DNA of 64,000 nucleotides from a virus. Lineage: Duplodnaviria; Caudoviricetes. The position numbers were made by a program, and so were the translations under genes. Of this stretch, positions 1,262-60,602 are shown one piece after another; the stretch's first letter is position 1; each line of letters starts with the position of its first letter. A model generated the notes under the pieces. The model was given only the letters and a program-made list of their open reading frames with translations, had not been told where the DNA came from and searched no databases. Where the stretch lies: positions 1 through 64,000 of the IMG/VR virus record IMGVR_UViG_3300031867_000013; one strand, given 5' to 3'.

Positions 1262-2989
1262 TTATACTATTGCCCTCGGCTCGGACGCACCCCGCGCACC
1301 GAAATCCGCATTGCCGCTGGACGCAGAGAAAATATTGCAAAGCGTGCAACGAGAGCCGCAAGTAGAAGAAGCGTCCCAACCGCCGCCCAATAACACCCGC
1401 CGCAACAAGCCCTTACACTTGCCGTATTTTTGAGAATCAGTCCCAGAATAGTATACAGACGATTCTTGCCACGAATACCCTGCGAGATCCTGATTTGTTG
1501 TGGAATTCCACGTGGCTCCTGGGTAAAATTCATGGCAATCAGCAGCCCACTGCCACAGCACGCCACAGCAATCTTCAAGGCCGTAATTACTGATCATTCG
1601 CAGATTGTTTGTGTCTTTGTGCCCGCCAGTAGTGTTTGGGTCTGCCGAACCATAAATGTTTGTCCGTTCGTTCGAGCCTTTCGCAAACACCATAAAATCA
1701 TCTCTTGAAGGTAATTGTTTCTTTACTAATCCAAAGTATTCTACAAATTTTTCTCCGTGGAAATTAGGTGTACTTGCCCCATCTGCAATTATTCCATTAT
1801 ATTCTGACACTAATTTTGCGCCATCATAACTTGCTAAGTATATATCTACCCATTTATTTACTTCGGGTATATATACCATTCCTTCATTTTCACTTGTTGC
1901 TCTATGTATTAAGTCCCACGGACTTTGAGGAAGTATATCTCCTGTTAGATAACCACTTAATGTATGTCCACTTATTGTGCCTACTGATAAACATAGACAA
2001 TGGAATCCTCCCATTTTGCGCGAATTATCTGCTGTATATCCTGTTGGAACAGTTGAATTTGCACTTAATATAAAATCGGGAGCATCATTTGATGTTGGTT
2101 CACAAGCATATATATAGAAATCTTTTCCTGCTCTTTGTGCCGCACTTGTATATGTACTATCGTCCCAATTATCTGCATTTTCTATATCTATTAGTTTTGT
2201 TCCTTCTAATACATATCCTCTGTTATTTATATTTATCCATGTTGGATATATTGTTATAGTAGTTTTATTTGTAGTATACAGTTGTTCACGCTCATAATGT
2301 GCAGGTGCTGTTGCTACAAATTTTCCTATTTCTACTGTTTCCCACATTGTTGTTGATTTTCTATATTTTATTTGTGGTATTAGTGTTATTGCTGGTGGTT
2401 GTACTGTATTTACTGAATCTGAATAGATTGAATTTGAATTAGAAGCCTTAAAATCTAATGGAGACACAAAGTACAAATGTCCTCCACTTTGTTGTTTCTG
2501 ATATGTAAAAGCATCATTATTTACTGAAAATTTACAATCTGAAAATACACCATTTGACATTGGGTCAGAAGCACCGCTTGGAGTAGTAGATGACCATTGT
2601 GCGCCACCAGCACCTTCTCCTTTTATATTAGGCAATCCTGCTTCTTTTTCTTCTACTGTATTTCCACCTTGTAATACTAAATCTATATAATTAGGTAATG
2701 TTAGTACATCTGTTGTACTATCATATTTGAATAAACTATTATCTGTTGTATCATTTGTTATTAAATTATTATCTTGCGCGAAAGATAAGAGGTCACTATA
2801 ATCATTAGAAGCATTTGCTAATGGAGTACCATCTAATTTTAAATAATCTCTCATTAGATACATTTGCCATGTTATATGACCTACTTGTGTGTCTCCATTC
2901 ATTATCCCTCTTGGTGTTTTCTTTGATATTTCTTTCATTATTGATATTAGATTATCTTTTTGTGAATAATGTTTTGACATTTTTATCAT
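1262..2989 (-). CDS. Tail fibre with collar-like N-terminus and Mtd-like (C-type lectin/FGE-fold) C-terminal domain
   Basis: Motifs GGFHCLC, WVDIYLAS, SNYGLEDCCGVLWQW and LLGGGW...CGSR...GARGASEP are typical of major tropism determinant-like proteins. Confidence 0.8.
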   Translation of the reverse strand: MIKMSKHYSQKDNLISIMKEISKKTPRGIMNGDTQVGHITWQMYLMRDYLKLDGTPLANASNDYSDLLSFAQDNNLITNDTTDNSLFKYDSTTDVLTLPNYIDLVLQGGNTVEEKEAGLPNIKGEGAGGAQWSSTTPSGASDPMSNGVFSDCKFSVNNDAFTYQKQQSGGHLYFVSPLDFKASNSNSIYSDSVNTVQPPAITLIPQIKYRKSTTMWETVEIGKFVATAPAHYEREQLYTTNKTTITIYPTWININNRGYVLEGTKLIDIENADNWDDSTYTSAAQRAGKDFYIYACEPTSNDAPDFILSANSTVPTGYTADNSRKMGGFHCLCLSVGTISGHTLSGYLTGDILPQSPWDLIHRATSENEGMVYIPEVNKWVDIYLASYDGAKLVSEYNGIIADGASTPNFHGEKFVEYFGLVKKQLPSRDDFMVFAKGSNERTNIYGSADPNTTGGHKDTNNLRMISNYGLEDCCGVLWQWAADCHEFYPGATWNSTTNQDLAGYSWQESSVYYSGTDSQKYGKCKGLLRRVLLGGGWDASSTCGSRCTLCNIFSASSGNADFGARGASEPRAIV

Positions 2990-7500: not shown

Positions 7501-7820
7501 CACTTTGTTGTACCATCAGTAAATATACTACCTGTTACATTATTTTCTGGCATATTTGCTTCTACGTCACTTATACCATCTTGCAAACATCTTGCATATT
7601 GATGTGATTTTAGATTTGGGTATCTTACTACGTCATCCTTATAATATACTGTTGTCTCTTTCCATTCTGTCCAATGCATAGGACTTTGTAAATGTGCTAC
7701 CCCAACTAATTTATTATCTGCATCATCTATAAACCTATTAAATGCGGCATCTCCGAACTGCCACGTTTGTTGTATTCGTAATAAATCTAATTTAGGTGTA
7801 CTTACTCCACTTGGCATCAT
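4545..7820 (-). CDS. Large virion protein with many tandem CBM5/12 (ChtBD3-like) repeats
   Basis: More than 10 repeats of W..x..Y..G..V.Y....Y.C...H.S...F......W. Confidence 0.75.
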   Translation of the reverse strand: MMPSGVSTPKLDLLRIQQTWQFGDAAFNRFIDDADNKLVGVAHLQSPMHWTEWKETTVYYKDDVVRYPNLKSHQYARCLQDGISDVEANMPENNVTGSIFTDGTTKWEVCSLTQVDADNGTIRIWLGGGVYYHRGDAVRYGDALYRAKIDHESSTTFDLDENKWQEIYASIRFWKPNIYYYLDDTAIYDDIIYKCIEEHKSVANFESDSSAIPPVVGDEDKWEIIGGAGGAKDWQADTKYQYGQLVLVHGILYRCNTKHRSSNSFSTDIANWDLVDAHIHDWQTAQYYVSGTLVAYNNIIYKCLTSHSSSANFETDISNWILYHNHIVIWDRNKSYYQGQIILYENRLYKCNTTHVSPNEITESGITRNATFLDDISNFDVIYASLTVWAKNIVYKVGDTILYNNEPFRCIKNHTSGSTSSSTIFDNITNDSNNCWERIGQRNPYITNWVSNTKYDVNQVVEYCGTLYRCNTFHTSISTFDATKWDLVYANIQPWVTGVVYKQNSVVLNDGHLYICLITHTSTTFNFDISNWLEISGEAGIKDWVTGKSYAKDTVVLVNGILYRTNTTHTAGATFASDIVKWDIVYSNIPIWTTGNYYPLNTLVSYNNLVYRCVTAHTASADFTSDSANWILYNNSITTWAANITYKVGQVVIHNGILYKCNANHVSSAVIDFTKFDGFGVDINHEVEGYDIEQGMNVKVTTDKKLIANDLTKWLRAAGKIEEINKLGVRDLKNKEIFGDWKTYTCNDNGTDWNDETNAEQVAAKNSYSFDVTNDAIICSRNNNAFSAFISQELYEPDYTVDYTIDNRILATIDPSLCGDDDALFFIAGFMQDANGDYHTLSVIRVGDTDGGHGMRFAIAYDVYTSWLSGVGSTAKVLANNTTLTAHDWDENSYAKLQVEKSTTGIVAKTSEINSDPYAVTLTYTLPATKPSDMTQEQYDNIKFMLEHDTRIGFGTQSNCSAFKLLDSAGSIKRISVYNTDTIQKMVFENGIQISAVDDTKVLLPQELVYSELNKRLYYVKGQKDVKEIQLNTFCTQWVSEGFYVENAIVQYQGAVYRCKECNFDTTFDPTKWEQIGGKIATKAQIDALFI

Positions 7821-7912
7821 TATTCACTTCCTTTTTACCATTTCAATATTAGTATATTATACCACAAAATATAGAAAAAGTCAAGGCATATAAATACCTT
7901 GACTTCCTTTAA

Positions 7913-10900
7913 TTATACCATCATATATTTCTGCCAATTTGTTCCATTATACTGCCAATATTCACTATAATTATCCACTAATTGTGTAAAATCAGTTCTA
8001 AATATATAATATGGATTGATTGTAAACGGATAAAGTATAGCATTATTATCTTCATCTTTTCCAATGATTCTATAAGCCATATTTGACAACCTATATATAT
8101 TACCGTCTTGACATAAAATATCATTTACAGAAGAAGTACCTGTTACCTGTATTCCTTCTATTAATATTGGACACTCTGTATACAATAAAGCTATTTGTGG
8201 ACTTACAGTTGTTGCTGAAACTACTATTGTACTGCTTGTTGATAATACATAACTATCTGCTAATGTTTGCGCTTCTGCTTGGTCTGCTACTACACCTACA
8301 AATCTTGGAGTTCTCCAATCTATTGTTTTCATATAACTAGAATAAGAATATAATTCTTTCATACTATCATATGTCATTACTTCAATAGTTACTGTATTTT
8401 GATATTTTATTTTATCCCCCATTAATTCGCAAAAACTAGACCAAGTTAAGGAATCTTCTTCAACATTTTTTCGTACTTCAATATCATCAATAATTTCTGT
8501 ATAAGTAGCTAATGTTCTAAATTCTCCATCTATACCACTAGAAGAAGTTTTTATTACATTATATGTAGATTCGGCAACTTTAACATCAGTATCTCTATCA
8601 ACTTGACTTATTATTCCATAATTATTAAATTTATTTCTACCAATAAACTTAAATAACAAATCTCCACTAAAAATAGTAGATGTTGTATAATCATATTGAT
8701 AAATTGTATCTTCTCCAATATCTACTCCATATTGTAAATTTGCCATTACACTTAAACGCTCTGAACGTCTTGACGTAGTATATTCTTCTACTAAAGATAA
8801 ATCAAATGGCTGTGACAAAGTTCTTGTTTCTGTTCTTAATTCCAACTTCTCTGTTACAGGAGAATCATTTTCCATAGCTACAGCATTTCCTGTTCCCGCT
8901 ATATTTTGTCTATTTTCTACAAAAAATATTATTGATTCTGCTGTATGTTGCTCTGGTAATGTATCAAAAATTCCCCTTATTACACCTTTTACCCTATAAT
9001 GTCCATTTGGTAATTTTTCTATTGTCTCATAACTCATATATTCATTATCAATAAATAATAAATTCAATCCGCTTGTTGATGTATAAGTAGTTGGATAATT
9101 TATTATTTTTTCTATTTTTTGTTCAATTAAATCCTCACCATTATTACCTAATATACTAAATTCAAAACCTTCTGCATCCACATCAAAACCTTTAAGATAC
9201 CCATAAGTTAATCTTCCTACTGTACTCCACGCCATTGATTGAGATGTTTTCATATAATTACCATGTACCTGTCTCCAAACATCCCAATAAACATCATGCC
9301 CATTAGGTTGTGCCGCATATGCATAAATATAAGTATTCAAACTTCTAGAAATTTCATAAGGTTCTTCCTCATATATATATCTGCCTATATTAGTAGGTTG
9401 TTCCTCTGGGTCTGTCCATTGAGGGCTTTCTGGTGTATCAAAATCTAATTTATCAAATCCAAATACATCTTCTATACCAGTTATACTTATTTTACCATCT
9501 GTTAAATTAGCATAATCTATATCTGTTACTCTATATACCACTTGTTTTAAACCATATGGTTCCCAGCTTACTTTTATTGGGTCTCCTATTGTTACATCAT
9601 ACGCATATCTATTTGTAACTAAATTTATTGCACTTAATGGATAACCATTCGCTAACTGATTCATTTGTGCTAACCATTTAGCATTTGCTGTTGTTGTAAA
9701 ATAATCACCATCTACAGATTTAGAAGTATAAAATCCGGTTATCAATCTATTAGATATATCTGTAAAAGTAAACTGTCCTGTATCATATTTATTTGAAGCA
9801 TCTGTAAATGATACTTCTACCGCACTTGTTGTTTCACTCCAATCAAGTCTACTGAACTCACAACTTTCTGTATTAGATACATCAAATTTCTTAATATTAT
9901 TTACATCATAATCATTTCTAATAAGTTTAAATGTTAATTTACCTGTTTTCGGGTCATCATACTTAACACCATTAACATGATTTAATATTTTAGTTATATA
10001 ATCATTTGATTGCGCTGTTCTATTTATTAAACATGATACTCCTAACTTTTCTTGTTCACATACTACACCTAAATCAACTAAACTATTAACATCTATCTTG
10101 CTTTCTAGATAACCACAGCCCCAATAGGTATTTGTTAATATTTCATAGATTGCTTCTGATGGGTTTAAATCATCATCTAATCTACCTAAATGCCAAACCC
10201 CGTATTGACACATAGATTCTAATGTAGATAAAACCATACCAAAATTTTCTCTATTTGTTGGTGGATAATAATCATATGCGGCAACAGCTTTATTATATAA
10301 ATCATCTAATAAGGATTGTGGTGGAAAATCTCTTTCATATAATATCCAATTTTTATCGCTAAATGAATATGGACTTGTGTGGTCTTTTTTACACGTATAT
10401 ACTTGTCCAATATGTAATACAACATTACCACACACATAATTTGTATTTTCTTGCCACCCAACATAAGTTGCTTGTTCCAATTTATTCCAATTATCAATAT
10501 CATCTAAAAAAGAATCAGACGATGTATGACTAACAATACACGCAAATCTACTAGAATCATACATAACAATATCCCCAACAGAATAAACAACATTAGAAGC
10601 CCAATCATTAACCTCACTTATATATTCATCCCAAGAAGGAATTATTAAAAATTCATTAGCCTTATCTATATAATTATCATATGATACTTGTAAATCACTC
10701 ATTTTTTCATCCATATATGATTGAACAGATGGGTCTTGTGCACTAATAAAATTATTAATTTTAGTAAATTCTTCTCCTAGTTTTGTTATAAATTTTTCTA
10801 ATAATATTGTTATCCAATATTTTCCTATCCTTGCAGGATAATTTACTACTTCAAACCACATTTCGGGTATTGTAGCTTGTTTTCCTATATATGCCCCACC

Positions 10901-18183: not shown

Positions 18184-19763
18184 GCACCTTCTTCCAATGG
18201 AATTAATAACCTATCACAAATTTGATAATTTTTCAAAACATTAGCTCTATCTTCATACCTAGCACGTATAACATCTGATTCCCATTCATCATTAACAATT
18301 TCACCTATATGATAAGGATAAAACCAAAATCTACTTTCCCAACCATTAGGAATACTTAAATATCGTTTTCCACTTAATGTTACTTCTCCACATGGCAAAC
18401 TCTTAAACCAACTACTATACACGTTTGGTATAATACCCATACAACCATTTTCTTTATAGTTTAAATTATCAGCTATAAAAACTATTATTTTTTGTAATGG
18501 AGAACTATATTCATGTGTATTATGCGGTCTATTAACAGTATAAGTATCTATAGTATACCTAGCATTTCTACCTAATCTTGGAAACATCATGTTATAATTT
18601 GAAAAACTTAAATCATCATTAGGTTCTTCAAGAGTTAGACCCCAACTTGGAACACAAGTACGTGGAGGACAAGCAAAATAACTCCTAACTGTTGCTGTCT
18701 GTGTATGCGCTGTAATATATTTCCACCGCCCTTGTGGACTTAATATCATAAAATTAGTAACTGTTGCACCATATTCTTGTGTTGGATGTAATAAATTACT
18801 ATTTGATAATGCTAAATTTCTCATATCTAAATCATAAGAATTTCCTGTTTTATATGCATCACAGGTTGCATGAATCGGATGATAAATAAAAAAATCTGGA
18901 GAAATACCTATATTTCCTCCTGCTACAAATAACGGAAACATATAAGACGTTTCTATCATATTTTCCATCATACCAAAAGCTATTGATTGATATAAGTCAA
19001 CATCTTCTCCATGATTTGATATTCTAAATGTTATAATAGCCATATAATCTGTTTTTAAAAACCAATAATCTATACCATATGTCGAAACTTTATATATAGA
19101 CTTATTTTCATTACTAATTGTAAGCCACGGAACTCTACTCATTGGATATTCTCTTGCAGACCAAGAAGCAGTATAACTACTACCAGTTCTAGGAGAAACA
19201 GTCATATGACCACCCATAAGATTTAATGTTCCATCTGCCCTACAAGCTGTTCCACCCTGTTCATCCATCCATAAATGTTCATCAAATAATGTATGAGGAC
19301 TTATTGCAATAAATTCTCCTGTATTTCTAAATATATTTTCTTGATTAGAACTTCCATATTTTGTATATATATATGTACTTTGAGATGGTATACTATCCCT
19401 AGAACTTGCAACATAATCCCCTGTATCATACATTCTATTTAATGAATTATTATACTTTTCCCAACTGCCACCATCACCATATAATAAAACACGTTTTGGT
19501 GGAGTTCCTAAATGATTTATATATGTACTATATGTATTTTGTGTAACATTTGTATGATTCATACTTATATAAAAATAAGGCACATTATCATTTTCATCTT
19601 TCCACTTTTTCATTGGAATCTTAAAAGTTGCCCCATAAAAAGTTTGTAATCTATCATCTTCTAATATCCATGCTTGTGTATTTGCATTGTATAATTGTGC
19701 AAACTCTATAAACTGCTCTGCAAGGTCTAATAAAGAAGTAGCTTTACCCGATTGAAACATCAT
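18180..19763 (-). CDS. Virion structural (tail) protein
   Basis: YQS..FG..YMFPLFVAG motif shared with 20443..21378. Confidence 0.55.
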   Translation of the reverse strand: MMFQSGKATSLLDLAEQFIEFAQLYNANTQAWILEDDRLQTFYGATFKIPMKKWKDENDNVPYFYISMNHTNVTQNTYSTYINHLGTPPKRVLLYGDGGSWEKYNNSLNRMYDTGDYVASSRDSIPSQSTYIYTKYGSSNQENIFRNTGEFIAISPHTLFDEHLWMDEQGGTACRADGTLNLMGGHMTVSPRTGSSYTASWSAREYPMSRVPWLTISNENKSIYKVSTYGIDYWFLKTDYMAIITFRISNHGEDVDLYQSIAFGMMENMIETSYMFPLFVAGGNIGISPDFFIYHPIHATCDAYKTGNSYDLDMRNLALSNSNLLHPTQEYGATVTNFMILSPQGRWKYITAHTQTATVRSYFACPPRTCVPSWGLTLEEPNDDLSFSNYNMMFPRLGRNARYTIDTYTVNRPHNTHEYSSPLQKIIVFIADNLNYKENGCMGIIPNVYSSWFKSLPCGEVTLSGKRYLSIPNGWESRFWFYPYHIGEIVNDEWESDVIRARYEDRANVLKNYQICDRLLIPLEEGA

Positions 19764-20437
19764 AGTAAATCACACTCCTTCTCTTTTTTAACAAATTCCC
19801 ACACTAATTTTTCACCATTTAATTTACCTGCAAAATTTCGTTCTCCACGACAGTTTGCAGAAATACCGCTAGGATGAACACCATAAACTTTTGAAGCCTC
19901 ATTTATACAATCAAAAATTTCTCCTGTATTTATTAGTTTAACAGGTTTAGAATTAACATTTAATTTTCCAGTTAAATGAACACCAAACATAGGATTTTTT
20001 TCTCCTATAAATTTTCCCTTTAATGCTAAACTTATTTTTTGTTTGGTATAATTAGAACGAGGAACTCCATAATTCCATACATCTTTACCTCTAGGATAAA
20101 TTCTGCTGTTTCCAATATGTTTCTTTGATTCTTCACTATGTTTATGTGCAAAATCAATATTTAATAAATTATATTTATCTTTATAATAATGTGTCCAATA
20201 TTCTTCTCTCTCTAACATTTTTTCCTTATTCTCACATTTTTCAATTAAAGAAATAGAAACATTATCTTTACCAACTTCATTAATATATAAAGTTACCTTC
20301 CTAGATGTTTTATCATTACAATGAAACTGAAATCTACGTTTTAATTCTAGTGTTGTACTCCCGATATAAATTATTTTATTAGTTAATTTATCCAATAAAT
20401 AATATACATTAAAACCGTCTTTTTTATTTGTTGCCAT
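19760..20437 (-). CDS. GIY-YIG homing endonuclease with NUMOD3-like repeats
   Basis: VY...IYIGST...RF..H, later catalytic E and N; HSEESKKHI and GEKNPMFG motifs. Confidence 0.85.
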   Translation of the reverse strand: MATNKKDGFNVYYLLDKLTNKIIYIGSTTLELKRRFQFHCNDKTSRKVTLYINEVGKDNVSISLIEKCENKEKMLEREEYWTHYYKDKYNLLNIDFAHKHSEESKKHIGNSRIYPRGKDVWNYGVPRSNYTKQKISLALKGKFIGEKNPMFGVHLTGKLNVNSKPVKLINTGEIFDCINEASKVYGVHPSGISANCRGERNFAGKLNGEKLVWEFVKKEKECDLL

Positions 20438-20442
20438 ATCTA

Positions 20443-21378
20443 TCACGCCATCTTTACTGCAAAATAACTATTTGCTAATCTATCCTGTTTCGTGTCGAAC
20501 ACTATATACTGTTCATTCTGATAAGTTAATATTTGTTCAGCCGCAACGTCACGTGTACCACTAATCCAATATACATCTCTTAATAAACCATTTACATCTG
20601 TAGGATTTGTAGTTTGTAACATAATAGGTATCAATAAAAAATTATCTTGGTCTACTACATCATCACTATGATAATTAGGTACTAAATATAAATTATGTGC
20701 ATTATATGGAAATAATGTACCTTCTGACGTAGGACTTGGATTTGGTCTACTTGCATTAAATATACGCCATGTACCATCTGCTCTCCTTAACATACCTTGA
20801 CCATTTTGAGGAAATACAAAACTACCATTATTATTACTGGGCCATGCGCCTTGTGTAGAAACACCATTTCCGCACACATACATAGGATATGGATATTGTC
20901 TTTCAGAAGCTATTGGATTTAAAAATCCCATATAAAAACTTTCATATACAATAGACATACGACATATACCAATAACTCTATAAGAATCTGCAAAAAACCA
21001 ATATGCAAATCTTTCATCTGCTGTTACTGTGAACATTGGTTGTGTTACTTCAACAGGAACATCAGAATCAGTATATCCATAAGATTTATTCCATTGCTGT
21101 ATAGACCCAGGCTGTTCAAAATATTCAAGATACGGGTCTAAACCTGTCATACTATCTAAAAACATCTTTTGTGCTTGATTTTCTGGTATACGTGCTTGAA
21201 GATATATTCTATCATTACCATCACCTATTCCACGCCATAAACAATACGAAGTTCTCGTTTGACCATTCCACATAGATGTTTTACGTTCTTCTCTTGTCCA
21301 ACCTACGCTTTGTAATAATGTATCTACTTCTTCTATTACATCATATATACTTGATGCCATTCCGCTTACATAAGACAT
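20443..21378 (-). CDS. Virion structural (tail) protein
   Basis: YESFYMGFL.P.A...QYPYPMYVCG motif seen in siphovirus post-tape-measure proteins. Confidence 0.65.
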   Translation of the reverse strand: MSYVSGMASSIYDVIEEVDTLLQSVGWTREERKTSMWNGQTRTSYCLWRGIGDGNDRIYLQARIPENQAQKMFLDSMTGLDPYLEYFEQPGSIQQWNKSYGYTDSDVPVEVTQPMFTVTADERFAYWFFADSYRVIGICRMSIVYESFYMGFLNPIASERQYPYPMYVCGNGVSTQGAWPSNNNGSFVFPQNGQGMLRRADGTWRIFNASRPNPSPTSEGTLFPYNAHNLYLVPNYHSDDVVDQDNFLLIPIMLQTTNPTDVNGLLRDVYWISGTRDVAAEQILTYQNEQYIVFDTKQDRLANSYFAVKMA

Positions 21379-50673: not shown

Positions 50674-51084
50674 TCAAAAAGCATTATCATAACATATTTC
50701 ATGTGTTTTCTCATAAGATAAATTTGGATTAAATATAAATTTAAAATTATATCCTTGTGTATTCAAATATAATATTTTTCTCAAAATTGTTTTTAAATAT
50801 CCAAATGCTGTTGATTGTCTTGTATTTAATAATTCTTGTAACATTGTTGCATTATGAATAATATTTATATCTCCTGTATATTTATTCAACTCACAAAGTT
50901 TAAAAAACCTATACAATTCATTTAAAACAAATATTGTTTTATTATATTTAAATTTTGCTTGTGAAGATATAATTCTTTTACAAACACTTTCATTATATTT
51001 CAATTCCAGAAAGTATGTAAAAATAAATCTAGAACCTCTTTTTATATCACTTTCAAAATGTAAATAAATATTTTTCATATTCAT
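50674..51084 (-). CDS. Hypothetical protein
   Basis: RBS AGGAG; 136 aa. Confidence 0.5.
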   Translation of the reverse strand: MNMKNIYLHFESDIKRGSRFIFTYFLELKYNESVCKRIISSQAKFKYNKTIFVLNELYRFFKLCELNKYTGDINIIHNATMLQELLNTRQSTAFGYLKTILRKILYLNTQGYNFKFIFNPNLSYEKTHEICYDNAF

Positions 51085-51182
51085 TACTCCTAAATAATTT
51101 TTGTATATATTATATTACATTTTTATCTTTTTTGAAATAGCAAAAAAGTCCTATTTATTTTCCAAACACCTTTTCGATTTCC

Positions 51183-51311
51183 TACATATTTATACATATT
51201 TATACATATTTATATTTTAAATACTTATTAAATACTTATTAAATACTTAGATAAATATAAGATAATAAAATATAAAAACAATATATAACACAAGCATATT
51301 TATATGCTTGT
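51183..51311. repeat. AT-rich iteron-like repeats and palindrome (candidate origin)
   Basis: 3x TACATATTTA, 3x TAAATACTTA(T/G), palindrome ACAAGCATAT-TT-ATATGCTTGT. Confidence 0.55.
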
Positions 51312-51512
51312 CAGTTATATTATAATAAAGAGTATTTAATATATCTTTCTTAATATTATAGAATATTATTATTATTATTTATTATTACTTATGTATAAAT
51401 ATGTTATATAGGGTAGCACACAAAATTTAATTTGTCAATAGGAAAAAAGTCCTATTTTTAATAAACCAAAAGTCTTATTTTTAATTATTTTCAAAAAGTA
51501 ATAAAAAATATG

Positions 51513-51541
51513 TTGACAAATATAAAATTTTGTGGTATAAT
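51513..51541 (+). promoter_or_regulatory. SigA promoter of the plus-strand operon
   Basis: TTGACA-N17-TATAAT with TG. Confidence 0.8.
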
Positions 51542-51633
51542 ACAAACAATTATAGATATTCTCTCCAAAAATTACAGTTTTAATGCATTATATGGAGAAA
51601 ATATATAGATTTTGAAGAAAGGAGGAATCCTTC

Positions 51634-52155
51634 TTGAAACCTGTTATATCAAGCAAAAATACAAAAGGAATGGTAAATTTTACAAAATCTATGGTTCATA
51701 GTATAGCAAATATAGCTTCTGTATCTCCAAGAAGTTTAGCTTTATTTTTAGCTTTATGTTCTTATGCTGATGACAATGGTTCATTAATTACAGACAATAA
51801 AACATTAGCACATTTAGTTAAAACAGAAACAAGAAAAATTGATTATTGTTTAAGAACACTACAGGAACATGGATTAATAGAAATACATAATGTAAATATT
51901 AAATATAATCACGATATATTTGGTAAAATACATGATAAACAAAATTATTATAAAACTAATAAACAAGAATGGAATATTACAGGAGATAGATATTTAACTA
52001 CAATAACTATTAGTGGTACATATAAAAGAATTTATCTTAATAAAGAATATGTTTCTTTTGCTAATGGTTATTATAATACATTATTATTATATGTTAAAAA
52101 TAATTTATACTATGATACAAGATTATCAGACAATCAAATTATTGAAGAAAGGTGA
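51634..52155 (+). CDS. Winged-helix DNA-binding protein (RepL-like)
   Basis: LFLAL..YADDNG.L....TLA.......I...L..L.E.GLIE pattern; RBS AGGAGG. Confidence 0.6.
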   Translation: MKPVISSKNTKGMVNFTKSMVHSIANIASVSPRSLALFLALCSYADDNGSLITDNKTLAHLVKTETRKIDYCLRTLQEHGLIEIHNVNIKYNHDIFGKIHDKQNYYKTNKQEWNITGDRYLTTITISGTYKRIYLNKEYVSFANGYYNTLLLYVKNNLYYDTRLSDNQIIEER

Positions 52156-57347: not shown

Positions 57348-57912
57348 TATTCCATTAAATATTAAAAATCCTTATACACATGATTCATATTGTTTTGATT
57401 TACCATTGTTTCCTATTACGTTACTAACAGGGCAGTATAAAACATCTATTATAAATTCCTTACAAAAGCAACATGACCCATATGATAAGATGACTAATTT
57501 TATTGTGTTTGATAATTTTATGTTTAATTCTTCATTAAATAGTAATCGACCAAAAGAAATAAAAAAGCTAATAGAATGTTTACATTCAAATGATATATTT
57601 TTAGTAGATGATATTGATTTATTCTATGACATACATAATAATGCCATAGATATATTTGAAAACGTGCCGAATGATGTACAAATTATATGTTCAGCGCATA
57701 ATTATGATTTTATCTATTATTTCTTAGGCAAAATATTAGATTTACAGCATAATACAGAAGAAAAAACATATGGAGTAACACGTATAAGACAATATAAAAA
57801 TGAAATACGTACTGCTACAATAACAGATATAAATTATAATATAGAACGATATGCAGAAGGACTACAATGGGAATCATATTTAATAGGAGACTATAGCCAT
57901 GCTACAGAATAA
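57337..57912 (+). CDS. Degenerate ABC/AAA ATPase-like protein
   Basis: ITLLTGQYKTSI (broken Walker A), FLVDDID, QIICSAH. Confidence 0.5.
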   Translation: MITNIPLNIKNPYTHDSYCFDLPLFPITLLTGQYKTSIINSLQKQHDPYDKMTNFIVFDNFMFNSSLNSNRPKEIKKLIECLHSNDIFLVDDIDLFYDIHNNAIDIFENVPNDVQIICSAHNYDFIYYFLGKILDLQHNTEEKTYGVTRIRQYKNEIRTATITDINYNIERYAEGLQWESYLIGDYSHATE

Positions 57913-58099
57913 AGTATATTTATCTTTATTAGACGTAATAGAATCTATAAAAGATAGTGCGCTACAAGAAGAATTAATGTATCACTATGAAAAAGAAAAG
58001 CGCATACAAAAGAATGAAATAAATAGATTAGAAGATGAAATAGATAATCTAAATGAAGAAATAGATGATTTATATGGTAGACTTGGATATGATGATTGA
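57899..58099 (+). CDS. Small coiled-coil protein
   Basis: RBS AGGAG; heptad pattern. Confidence 0.5.
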   Translation: MLQNKVYLSLLDVIESIKDSALQEELMYHYEKEKRIQKNEINRLEDEIDNLNEEIDDLYGRLGYDD

Positions 58100-58616
58100 A
58101 TAATATATATAACAGTACATTAAACAGCACATTGGACGGATATATTTTTATCCGTCTATTTTTTTTTATATTTTTATAGTTTTATATTTTTATATGTATA
58201 TACAAAAGGTAATTCAAAATTCTCCAAAAATTTTTCGACACAAAGAGGATATACATATAAGAAGTGAAATATTATTTAGTGTTTTTGAGGCATTTCATTT
58301 AGTATTTTTGGGGTGTATTATTATATGTTTTTGGGATAAATAATGTTCAATATAATAGACATTATAATTTATAGCGCAATAAAATTTATATGGCGCAACA
58401 TAAAGATATAAATACATATATTTAAATAAATTTCGGCAAAAACATAAAGGTGCAGAATTTAATTAAAAATCTATTTGGGCGAAAAAATAAATAAAGAAAA
58501 GAAGATAAGTATATAGATAAAAAATAATATAATATGCTATAATTACATTTTGACATATAGCGTTACATAGGGGTAACTTGAAGTCTGAAAAAATTTGAAC
58601 GACTGGAATAACGTAT

Positions 58617-58772
58617 TGAGAACGATTCTCACTTGAACCCCGCGGAGGTAGTTGAGAATGATGATCAGTTGAGAACGATTCTTAATTGATAATGGATTCT
58701 CATTTGAGAATGGTTTTCATTTGGGAATGATTCGTAATTGATAATACGTTCTCAAATGAGAATGGATTCTCA
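58617..58772. promoter_or_regulatory. Tandem array of 8 Fur-box-like palindromes
   Basis: TGAGAA(C/T)-N1-2-(A/G)TTCTCA units at 58617, 58653, 58670, 58687, 58705, 58722, 58739, 58757. Confidence 0.65.
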
Positions 58773-58779
58773 ATTAGAA

Positions 58780-58818
58780 CGTGCATAAAAATTTATGGTG
58801 TATGAATAAAAATTCATC
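58780..58818. promoter_or_regulatory. Tandem ARG-box-like pair
   Basis: TGCATAAAAATTTA and TGAATAAAAATTCA offset by 21 bp. Confidence 0.5.
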
Positions 58819-59201
58819 ACATAAAAGTATGCTTTTTTTGCATAGATTCTTTCATTTTATGCTTTTTTCGTTTTCCTGCATTTTTTCGGCGTTTTCTTTT
58901 TTCGCACATAGCGGAAGGATATTTTCATATATAGCCATAAAACGCGCAGAAAAGCCCCTAGAAACGACTAAAACATCTTGCCCTATAGTTTATACTTAAA
59001 AAATGCTTTAATGGCTTAGAGGTGATCCCAGCGAGTTTAGAAGGAATTTAGATATTTATATAGGACTTTATACTCTACAAAAAAATTTCATAGGACTTTC
59101 GGGCAAAAATGAGAAAAAGATATTGCAAATATATTGTCCCTCTGATATACTTAACATGATCAGAAAATCACACAACAAAACAGCGAAGGGAGGCGAAAAT
59201 A

Positions 59202-59348
59202 ATGGCGTTCAGACATTCTTTCAGCGTTGGATTTATGGCAAGGCAAAACAAGCCTGACATGGTAACAAAGAAAACTCTTGTACACTTCGCAAGCGTACCA
59301 GCAAAAGCAGGACGGACGGCGAAAAAAGCAGACAAGGCGAAGAAGTAA
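59202..59348 (+). CDS. Small basic early protein (48 aa, not in ORF track)
   Basis: RBS GGAGG; MAFRHSFSVG...KADKAKK; TTGCAA-N17-TATACT promoter upstream. Confidence 0.55.
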   Translation: MAFRHSFSVGFMARQNKPDMVTKKTLVHFASVPAKAGRTAKKADKAKK

Positions 59349-59408
59349 AAAAGGGCAAAGGGAAGGGCTAATAAGCCCTTCCCGATAATAAAAGAGGAGA
59401 TATATATT

Positions 59409-59528
59409 ATGTGGTACGTATTTTTTAAGGAAGATTCTTGGGAATGTGGATGGAGTGTTAAGAGCAGGGAAGAAGCAGAACGTTATTGTAATGCTAATCC
59501 AGATTATTGCTTCGTATATGTAGGATAG
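59409..59528 (+). CDS. Small early protein (39 aa, not in ORF track)
   Basis: RBS GAGGAG; MWYVFFKEDSWECGW... Confidence 0.5.
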   Translation: MWYVFFKEDSWECGWSVKSREEAERYCNANPDYCFVYVG

Positions 59529-59542
59529 AGGAGGTTTACAAA

Positions 59543-59809
59543 ATGAAGGTTTATAACATGACAAGTAATAGCACAGGGCGCAAAGTGGCAAATCAGTTTA
59601 TTATCGAGCATGAAGGAAAGGTTTATTTCCAAAGCTACAACACCATTATTGCAATGAAACAAGCAGGGAAAATAATTATTGATACTAACGCCGAAAATTA
59701 TTCTAAAACGACCAGCAAATATCTATATCAATTCTTGAATACTGACAGAAAAAGCCTTTTGCAAGCAGTAAAAGATGGGCGAATTGCACGGGCAGACCTT
59801 AACGCATGA
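59543..59809 (+). CDS. Hypothetical early protein
   Basis: RBS GAGGAGG; VANQF...FQSY.T.IA...YS.TT.KY. Confidence 0.65.
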   Translation: MKVYNMTSNSTGRKVANQFIIEHEGKVYFQSYNTIIAMKQAGKIIIDTNAENYSKTTSKYLYQFLNTDRKSLLQAVKDGRIARADLNA

Positions 59810-59872
59810 GACAATAGCACAAGGGCGGGGCGAATGTTCCCTGCCCTATAAATTCAAAGGGAGGATTTAAAA

Positions 59873-60145
59873 ATGAAAATGTTTAATGTAACATTCAATA
59901 AAACGGGCGAATATGGCGATATGTATGAGGAAAGCAACGAGGCAGTTTTTCTTGCTGATAATATCGAGGATATTGTCGAATACTTGAAAAAAACTTATCT
60001 TCCCAACGGAGAGCAGAAAACGCTTGAAGAAATGATTATTTTGTCTCACGATGTAGAGGATTTTTCCCCATATGTTATCCATGAAATATTAGTCTATGAG
60101 ATTAATATTAAGCCGATAACAGATAAAATTAGTTATTTGGGATAG
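59873..60145 (+). CDS. Acidic hypothetical early protein
   Basis: RBS GGAGG; D/E-rich. Confidence 0.6.
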   Translation: MKMFNVTFNKTGEYGDMYEESNEAVFLADNIEDIVEYLKKTYLPNGEQKTLEEMIILSHDVEDFSPYVIHEILVYEINIKPITDKISYLG

Positions 60146-60389
60146 GAGGGCTTTTTATGTATAAAGTGGTAGGGCGAACCTATACAGGGCAACACGTTGA
60201 AATGATTATTTCTGTCAATGCTCTTTATGCGTGCGCTATTGTGGAATATATTGAAAACATACAAACAGGGGAGCGTGTCTATTATGAAAATAAATGATAT
60301 AATGAATTTATTATTGCTTGTTTTAATGGGTTTTATGTCGTTTCTGTCAATGTTTCGCGCATGTATGAATTTTTAGGAGGTATAATAAT

Positions 60390-60602
60390 ATGAAGCCGAT
60401 TGCTTATTATGCTTTATTCGTTGATTTCCTCATTATGATATATGATATTGAGTACGGGATTAATGATTATATAATATATACATATAAAACACCATCGAAG
60501 GAAAGCAGGAAATTTAAGGCGAAAATTAGATATGATAAGGCAGGAAACGCCTATTTTCGGCAAAAGAATCCTGTACCGCTTTCGGAGTGCATGAAATATT
60601 AA
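60390..60602 (+). CDS. Hypothetical early protein
   Basis: RBS AGGAGG; followed by terminator. Confidence 0.6.
   Translation: MKPIAYYALFVDFLIMIYDIEYGINDYIIYTYKTPSKESRKFKAKIRYDKAGNAYFRQKNPVPLSECMKY

Follow-up and report, generated by a model that had tools for sequence, protein, structure and literature searches.

Phage takeover is usually credited to phage proteins and small RNAs, whereas at the present locus gene-free DNA bears what look like host operators in bulk, which raises the question of what such DNA could do for the phage that carries it. The source record, that of a gut phage, is a single contig of 117,886 bp, the first 64 kb of which form the window, i.e. the whole stretch of DNA that was analysed; the ends of the record share a 149-bp overlap, pointing to a circular assembly with the array located mid-contig. 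The original prediction had described eight Fur-box-like palindromes, seven of them at a period of 17–18 bp and three with a 2-nt centre, and all of these were found again. Specifically, positions 58617–58772 hold eight TGAGAAT-N(1-2)-ATTCTCA units with 0–3 mismatches each, starting at 58617, 58653, 58670, 58687, 58705, 58722, 58739 and 58757. The first of these Fur-type boxes (7-1-7 type; 58617–58631, no strand assigned) lies 36 bp from unit 2, with the gap being occupied by a GC-rich 19-mer (58633–58651) that box 1 flanks on the left. Boxes 2–8 (58653–58772, likewise unstranded) follow each other at a 17–18 bp period, with successive spacings of 17, 17, 18, 17, 17 and 18 bp, and the three 2-nt centres belong to the units at 58687, 58739 and 58757. 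A ninth, terminal half-unit (TTAGAACG; 58774–58781, no strand assigned) overlaps the first of two downstream ARG boxes by 2 bp.

Tandem Repeats Finder recovered the array with a period of 17 bp (7.4 copies) and with a second period of 52 bp (2.2 copies, 80% matches), the latter suggesting that a three-box block was duplicated within the array. The clustering of the eight boxes was confirmed as real and far from chance: when up to two mismatches were allowed, the 117,886-bp genome contained nine matches, seven of which fell inside the about 160 bp of the array, against a Poisson expectation of 0.003 such boxes in 180 bp.

By sequence, the boxes are Fur-family operators. Table 1 of a study on the Fur regulon of Enterococcus faecalis (PMC6056675) lists the binding sites TGAGAACGATTCTCA for both fhuD and feoAB, TGAGAATGATTCTCA for yclQPN and TGATAACGATTCTCA for fhuCBG, and the fhuD, feoAB, yclQPN and fhuCBG operons were all upregulated 5–18-fold in the corresponding fur deletion mutant (PMC6056675). 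Unit 1 of the array is letter-identical to the fhuD/feoAB box, the array consensus equals the yclQPN box, and the alternation between G and T at position 4 within the array reproduces the variation among the host boxes. The 7-1-7 pattern TGA(T/G)AAT-N-ATT(A/C)TCA is matched by five of the eight units (0–3 mismatches), while the other three depart from it by their 2-nt centre and should therefore be bound poorly by a 7-1-7 Fur dimer.

A scan for the 17-mer palindrome in one genome per prokaryote species revealed at least 120 loci from many phyla, including some that are typically high in G+C, in which such an AT-rich word would not be expected by chance. Among ten loci from Bacillota and Clostridia, the palindrome could be positioned in six; it was intergenic each time and in five cases lay ahead of metal genes. 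These genes comprised feoA-feoB of Bacillus alkalicola, Fur-family regulator genes of gut Clostridia in two cases, a ZnuA gene preceded by two boxes, and a CntL-like metallophore gene of weak assignment. The user of the box in gut Clostridia may be any Fur-family paralogue, be it Fur, Zur or PerR. The Fur identity proposed originally is thus well supported by agreement with both the E. faecalis boxes and the Bacillota metal-gene operators, and a Fur-family protein of the host probably binds the boxes.

While the 15-bp palindrome is common to the array and to Bacillota Fur operators (E. faecalis fhuD, feoAB and yclQPN; B. subtilis 7-1-7), the arrangement differs. The host operators consist of one to few sites, often overlapping at 3–6 bp offsets and located on promoters, whereas the phage array presents eight abutting sites at 17–18 bp in gene-free DNA, and it lacks the overlap with a repressed promoter that marks a Fur operator. 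In E. coli, 83% of Fur clusters overlap strong promoters. A simple consensus scan found no consensus promoter overlapping the boxes in the window, in its relatives or in the coliphage EC.P2 (see below), and on the array itself the promoter scan returned only pseudo-promoters of 9/12 matches made by the boxes themselves.

Immediately downstream of the boxes, the two A-rich palindromes that had been noted 21 bp apart were confirmed, with core starts at 58782 and 58803. Together they form a 39-bp operator of the ArgR/AhrC type (58780–58818, no strand assigned), composed of two 18-bp ARG boxes (58780–58797 and 58801–58818) with a 3-bp spacer. Both the established 18 + 3 + 18 = 39 bp layout of ArgR sites (PMC4381063) and the ARG box consensus of E. 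coli and B. subtilis (PMC5291005) match the phage pair, in which box 2 fits the E. coli consensus at all specified positions but one and fits the B. subtilis consensus as well. Apart from the core of box 2, the genome contains no exact TGAAT-W4-ATTCA, and a pair at 21 bp spacing appeared in none of 200 block-shuffled genomes. The pair, being unique in the genome and combining the 18-bp consensus with a separation within the 2–3 bp range, is an ArgR-type operator as far as motif and layout can tell, which bears out the tandem ArgR-like operator of the original prediction. Unlike known ArgR/AhrC operators, however, it is not located at an arginine gene.

The array is embedded in a 1.1-kb stretch without genes. 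The left border of this stretch is a terminator-like hairpin (58133–58158, + strand), kept in relatives, that closes an upstream + strand block encoding an initiator-like winged-helix protein, an exonuclease and a PhoH-like ATPase. To the right of the array, T-tract repeats with a 16-bp period (58846–58888, + strand), which are possibly bent DNA and the stretch of which is conserved in relative L051, are followed by another terminator-like hairpin (58897–58919). The nearest promoter had been placed near 59123, and a sigma-70-type promoter-like site was indeed seen at 59123–59151 (+ strand; TTGCAA-17-TATACT with an upstream TG), about 300 bp beyond the end of the ARG pair. It heads a small early operon of + strand genes running from 59202 to 60602, the first of which (59202–59348, + strand) encodes a basic protein of 48 aa, referred to as 'MAF...'. 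About 7 kb around the array is gene-poor, and CodY-like boxes occur in excess genome-wide (57 versus 33 expected), clustering at 60.6–64.7 kb.

The phage encodes its own PolA, DnaB-like helicase, clamp loader and RecA, as well as a ribonucleotide reductase with barrel and TSCPD domains that is probably of class II, but no Fur-family gene was found when its genome was searched for one. Its TerL is of the PBSX type known from Bacillota phages, the hosts of the TerL relatives resolve only to 'Bacillota', and a search for an endolysin among ten late proteins, as a clue to the host, found none. Further gene content at window positions 1262–2989 and 19760–20446 and genome positions 76261–78468 and 107994–110261 comprises a tail protein carrying an Mtd second domain, which a diversity-generating retroelement may target, a GIY-YIG/NUMOD3 homing endonuclease, a kinase-phosphatase-RNA ligase fusion and the TSCPD-domain reductase.

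Relatives of the locus were obtained as short metagenome contigs, via homologues of a neighbouring 205-aa protein (55–95% identical) in gut and rumen metagenomes, and two further relatives came from a pattern scan of JGI metagenomes. Searching IMG/VR with the flanking proteins yielded no relatives or a distant one, scanning it with the upstream motif plus the core pattern yielded unrelated matches only, and blastn of positions 57800–60200 against cultured phages yielded nothing. What these relatives have in common is the GC-rich core itself (58633–58651, no strand assigned), a 19-mer unique in the genome that starts with TTGAACCC and ends in GGTAG. Its layout, consisting of TTGAACCC, a C tract, 2–5 variable bases, a G tract and TA, was found in 9/9 relatives examined (e.g. 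at 4772 in L050, 4340 in L054, 1712 in L055, 8416 in L049, 2020 in L051, 618 in L100 and 5604 in L047).

The sequences flanking this core differ between relatives, being either Fur-type, AAGTCAA-type or CodY-like inverted repeats. Boxes 1 and 2 flank it at fixed distances in the window (eight boxes), L055 (seven), L054 and L050 (six each) and L049, where only this flanking pair is present. L051, L098 and L100 have no Fur-type boxes and another inverted repeat around the core, and L047 likewise has none and a CodY-like inverted repeat instead. In L051 the boxes are missing despite 90% identity of its 205-aa protein to the counterpart in the window. Because the relatives carry 8, 7, 6, 6, 2 or 0 of them, the Fur-type boxes are accessory and their copy number is fluid (0–8).

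The terminal half-unit is kept in L050 and L054 and has a variant form in L055, and the ARG pair is kept in these same three relatives, with a single ARG box in L051. ARG box 2 of L054 ends some 34 bp before a –10-like hexamer, and the pair of L050 lies about 50 bp before a promoter-like site. The 'MAF...' gene was found 219–600 bp downstream of the core in 8/9 relatives, the exception being L047, in which it was sought and not found. In L049, an extra ORF of 236 aa (7612–8322) is inserted upstream of the core, at a distance of about 90 bp, in a place that is AT-rich and non-coding in the other relatives.

Several identities for the core were tried and rejected. Read as a CsoR operator (TAC-X9-GTA), the core has the X9 spacing and the C/G tracts in five of its six distinct sequences, L050 having X8 instead, but the left arm reads AAC in all nine copies, which represent these six sequences, and in the CsoR operator of S. 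lividans a T-to-A change in both arms abolishes binding. Moreover, the L047 core is not palindromic, and an extended CsoR-like motif was about as frequent in 401 Clostridia genomes as expected by chance. The core was dismissed as a tRNA T-arm or attP remnant on account of a reverse-strand T-loop-like word without a matching stem, as an intrinsic terminator for want of a T-run on either strand, and as a sigma-70 promoter because of inconsistent spacing (14–17 nt) and a negative promoter scan. A search of Rfam for a structured RNA gave no credible match.

That flanks are swapped around the core in L051, L098 and L100, as in specificity modules, is also what could be expected if a phage-encoded protein were to bind the repeats, with their likeness to Fur boxes arising from convergence or from mimicry that competes at host Fur sites. 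The relatives further show isolated left half-sites repeated directly at offsets of 12 bp, and conservation of the units with a 2-nt centre, both of which would suit such a protein. Against this, the boxes are letter-identical to host operators, and arrays in unrelated phages follow Fur-box variants, the best box of coliphage EC.P2 agreeing with the E. coli 19-bp consensus at 16/19 positions. In addition, neither neighbouring gene tracks the box type: the DUF8033 allele of the box-less L047 is 62% identical, and L055 (with boxes) and L100 (without) share the same small-protein variant. DUF8033 and the small 'MAF...' protein were for this reason rejected as cognate binder, and a binder encoded by the phage appears improbable altogether.

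The repeats might alternatively be the iterons of a replication origin recognised by a phage initiator, in view of their gene-free setting, the unique core and the proximity of T-tracts and of AT-rich DNA. At 58392, 58434 and 58477, 140–225 bp upstream of the array, an imperfect direct repeat made up of GGCGC or CGGC, a run of A and AAAG occurs three times with a period of 42–43 bp, and the Fur array of coliphages described below adjoins iteron-like repeats as well. However, an iteron origin would have its repeats in all relatives and beside both an AT-rich region and an initiator gene, and this is not what the array presents, with close relatives (L051, with its nearly unchanged 205-aa protein, L098, L100 and L047) doing without boxes. 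The most AT-rich DNA of the phage (up to 88% in 200 bp) is found at 51000–51630, a divergent junction, and the minimum of the cumulative GC skew also falls at about 51 kb, next to an initiator-like gene (51634–52155; phrog_270, HTH_36). The 51000–51630 region is the better origin candidate, and an origin role for the array seems highly improbable.

The original prediction had also entertained a protein-coating site near the genome end, and a pac site would be the related possibility. Short repeat arrays are known from within the ends of T7-type genomes, and the contigs of three relatives (L048, L052 and L053) stop 250–400 bp past the last gene of the upstream + strand block, in an AT-rich repeat region. 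These contig ends could reflect assembly breaks at repeats or strain variation, with no evidence of a physical end. Packaging genes, i.e. TerS (Terminase_2) and the PBSX-type TerL, are located at 40.8–43.0 kb (39.3–43.0 kb with the portal), 16 kb from the array, and are of the PBSX/SPP1 headful type. As the pac site of such phages usually lies in or near terS, as the assembly is circular with the array in the middle of the contig, and as close relatives dispense with the array, a pac site or coated genome end has only the slightest chance of being correct. The earlier interpretation is well supported for the Fur and ArgR identity of the sites and is not supported for their location near a genome end.

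We tentatively favour the reading that the array is a cis-acting control element through which the phage reads the iron and arginine state of its host, an account that we deem plausible while placing it somewhat short of probable. The phage, which appears to be lytic, would for this purpose carry host-type operators in the form of eight putative Fur-family boxes and one putative ArgR (AhrC) double box. Under iron-replete conditions, holo-Fur dimers of the host would occupy the boxes, probably in a cooperative manner, and the arginine-bound ArgR hexamer would occupy the 39-bp site. Boxes 1 and 2 would clamp the GC-rich core, with the remaining boxes extending Fur occupancy downstream, so that the activity of the core would be coupled to the iron and arginine status of the host. 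Our guess is that the core serves transcription into the downstream small early operon, as is the case with Spo0A boxes on phi29, and Fur and ArgR may also gate read-through into this operon. We infer here that Fur and ArgR bind, what the core does and in which direction the effect would go.

A cis role is suggested by the fixed position of boxes 1 and 2 around a conserved core, by the retention of just these two boxes in L049, by the persistence of the core when its flanks become other operator-like inverted repeats, and by the 'MAF...' gene downstream of it in 8/9 relatives. Further support comes from the identity of unit 1 with the fhuD/feoAB Fur box and the occurrence of the palindrome ahead of metal genes, from the absence of a Fur-family gene in the phage itself, from the statistical uniqueness and conservation of the ARG pair, and from coliphages placing a Fur-box array in a conserved non-coding control region. 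To our knowledge, moreover, wherever sites for host factors on phage DNA have been validated, they act in cis, which we count in favour of this reading. The closest parallel is that of the lytic phages phi29 and Nf, whose Spo0A boxes act in cis (PMC2731898). As in the array, multiple sites for a global host regulator are found on the DNA of a Bacillota phage, and Spo0A lets the phage follow host physiology via early transcription and replication (PMC2731898). For phi29 and Nf both binding and effect were shown, with the sites located on early promoters and origins (PMC2731898), whereas the array comprises putative tandem sites for metal- and nutrient-sensing regulators.

Several observations speak against a control element in cis. 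No promoter overlaps the boxes, in contrast to the high proportion of such overlaps among E. coli Fur clusters, and the 2-nt centre found in three of the eight boxes should be ill suited to a 7-1-7 Fur dimer. Repression by repressors that are active under nutrient-replete conditions would be odd for a lytic phage, although repression under plenty would be sensible if the downstream genes were needed only in starved cells. Finally, eight boxes and a copy number ranging from 0 to 8 would suit a dosage function equally well.

Such a dosage function would be that of a decoy in trans, in which the thousands of tandem boxes on multiplying phage genomes sequester holo-Fur and derepress host iron uptake, and in which the ARG pair and the neighbouring CodY boxes titrate ArgR and CodY likewise. 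The principle is known from the Fur titration assay, in which one Fur site on a high-copy plasmid derepresses fhuF by withdrawing Fur from chromosomal promoters (PMC3788343). If Fur binds, eight boxes on replicating phage DNA would have the same effect as in this assay, which is itself a laboratory cloning artefact, unlike the phage array. The boxes are packed as tightly as possible (15–16 bp plus 2) without promoter overlap, the 52-bp block looks duplicated, relatives differ so widely in copy number, and the gene-poor surroundings of about 7 kb show the excess of CodY-like boxes mentioned above, all of which would befit a sink. Fur, ArgR and CodY, moreover, all repress nutrient acquisition in plenty, and their joint removal would yield one coherent benefit.

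A pure sink, however, would need neither fixed boxes 1 and 2 around the core nor a relative with only two boxes, and a number of the units are either degenerate or built around a 2-nt centre. The ribonucleotide reductase of the phage looks like class II, leaving no obvious iron demand. A literature search for a validated precedent found none, and we know of no validated natural decoy borne by a phage. Titration in trans is possible but on the whole unlikely as the explanation of the array. The cis and decoy readings are not mutually exclusive, and under the preferred reading of a control element in cis, any binding would entail that growing numbers of phage genomes also titrate Fur, which may reinforce the cis effect. 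If Fur and ArgR indeed bind, the phage would either time its early programme by the iron and arginine state of the cell, or reset nutrient regulons via DNA alone.

Arrays of the same kind in other phages bear on both readings. An exact 16-mer scan of IMG/VR returned 45 single chance matches and no arrays, and a scan for two abutting boxes revealed 18 loci from at least seven unrelated groups. The box counts in some of these unrelated phages, ranging from 9 to 21 where 1–2 are expected, weigh in favour of a decoy: L236 has 21 boxes in 13 kb versus 1.2 expected, L227 has 16 versus 1.6, and L238 has nine versus 1.1. L236, L237 and L227 were recognised as phage contigs by PHROG matches (primase, TerL, HNH endonuclease), and two proteins of L242 compared with PHROG gave no match. 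That lytic phages of unrelated lineages carry arrays of host operators as protein-free sinks, stripping the host of repressors and so switching on nutrient acquisition, is nevertheless something we regard as doubtful. In L236 (2800–3050 and 6500–8800), at least eight contiguous boxes follow each other at an exact 17-bp period inside a 1.5-kb gene-free gap between divergent gene blocks, and weak DNA matches of this contig lead to Acinetobacter-type phages.

The L236 array also matches gene-free DNA in cultured coliphages. Escherichia phage EC.P2 (Justusliebigvirus; PQ631072.1, L249) has five tandem Fur-type boxes at 744–851, and the 401-bp stretch around them was found in 123 phage records, in 56 of these over at least 80% of its length and always unannotated. 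As judged by these matches, no fewer than 56 records of cultured phi92-like coliphages carry a similar array. The coliphage boxes resemble those of the window in lying in unannotated gene-free DNA ahead of early genes and in adjoining direct repeats and a GC-rich element, and differ in belonging to an unrelated phage with a host of another phylum and in their irregular spacing of 17–29 bp. The stretch of EC.P2 that was read showed no evident ARG pair, and a literature search found no paper linking phi92-like phages with Fur. The presence of this kind of array in so many cultured coliphages makes the question of its function testable, since both fur mutants and reporter strains for Fur titration are available in E. 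coli. It further offers a practical reading for long 'non-coding' regions in large phages, and box variants may help in host prediction.

Some smaller observations concern these phages. A second phi92-like coliphage record (LC739536.1, L250) likewise has five tandem Fur-type boxes in unannotated DNA. In EC.P2, three direct repeats (L249 480–720) are located just upstream of the Fur boxes, and a strong minus-strand promoter-like site (1113–1085; 11/12) faces the array, beyond which the fetched stretch contains no annotated minus-strand gene. In another set of IMG/VR loci (L225–L234 and L241; 16–17.6 kb), two abutting Fur-type boxes adjoin a LexA-type Cheo box (GAAC-N4-GTTC), and in several of them the boxes lie about 80–260 bp from the end of the fetched stretch; these loci may represent small phages able to read regulators of iron and of DNA damage alike.
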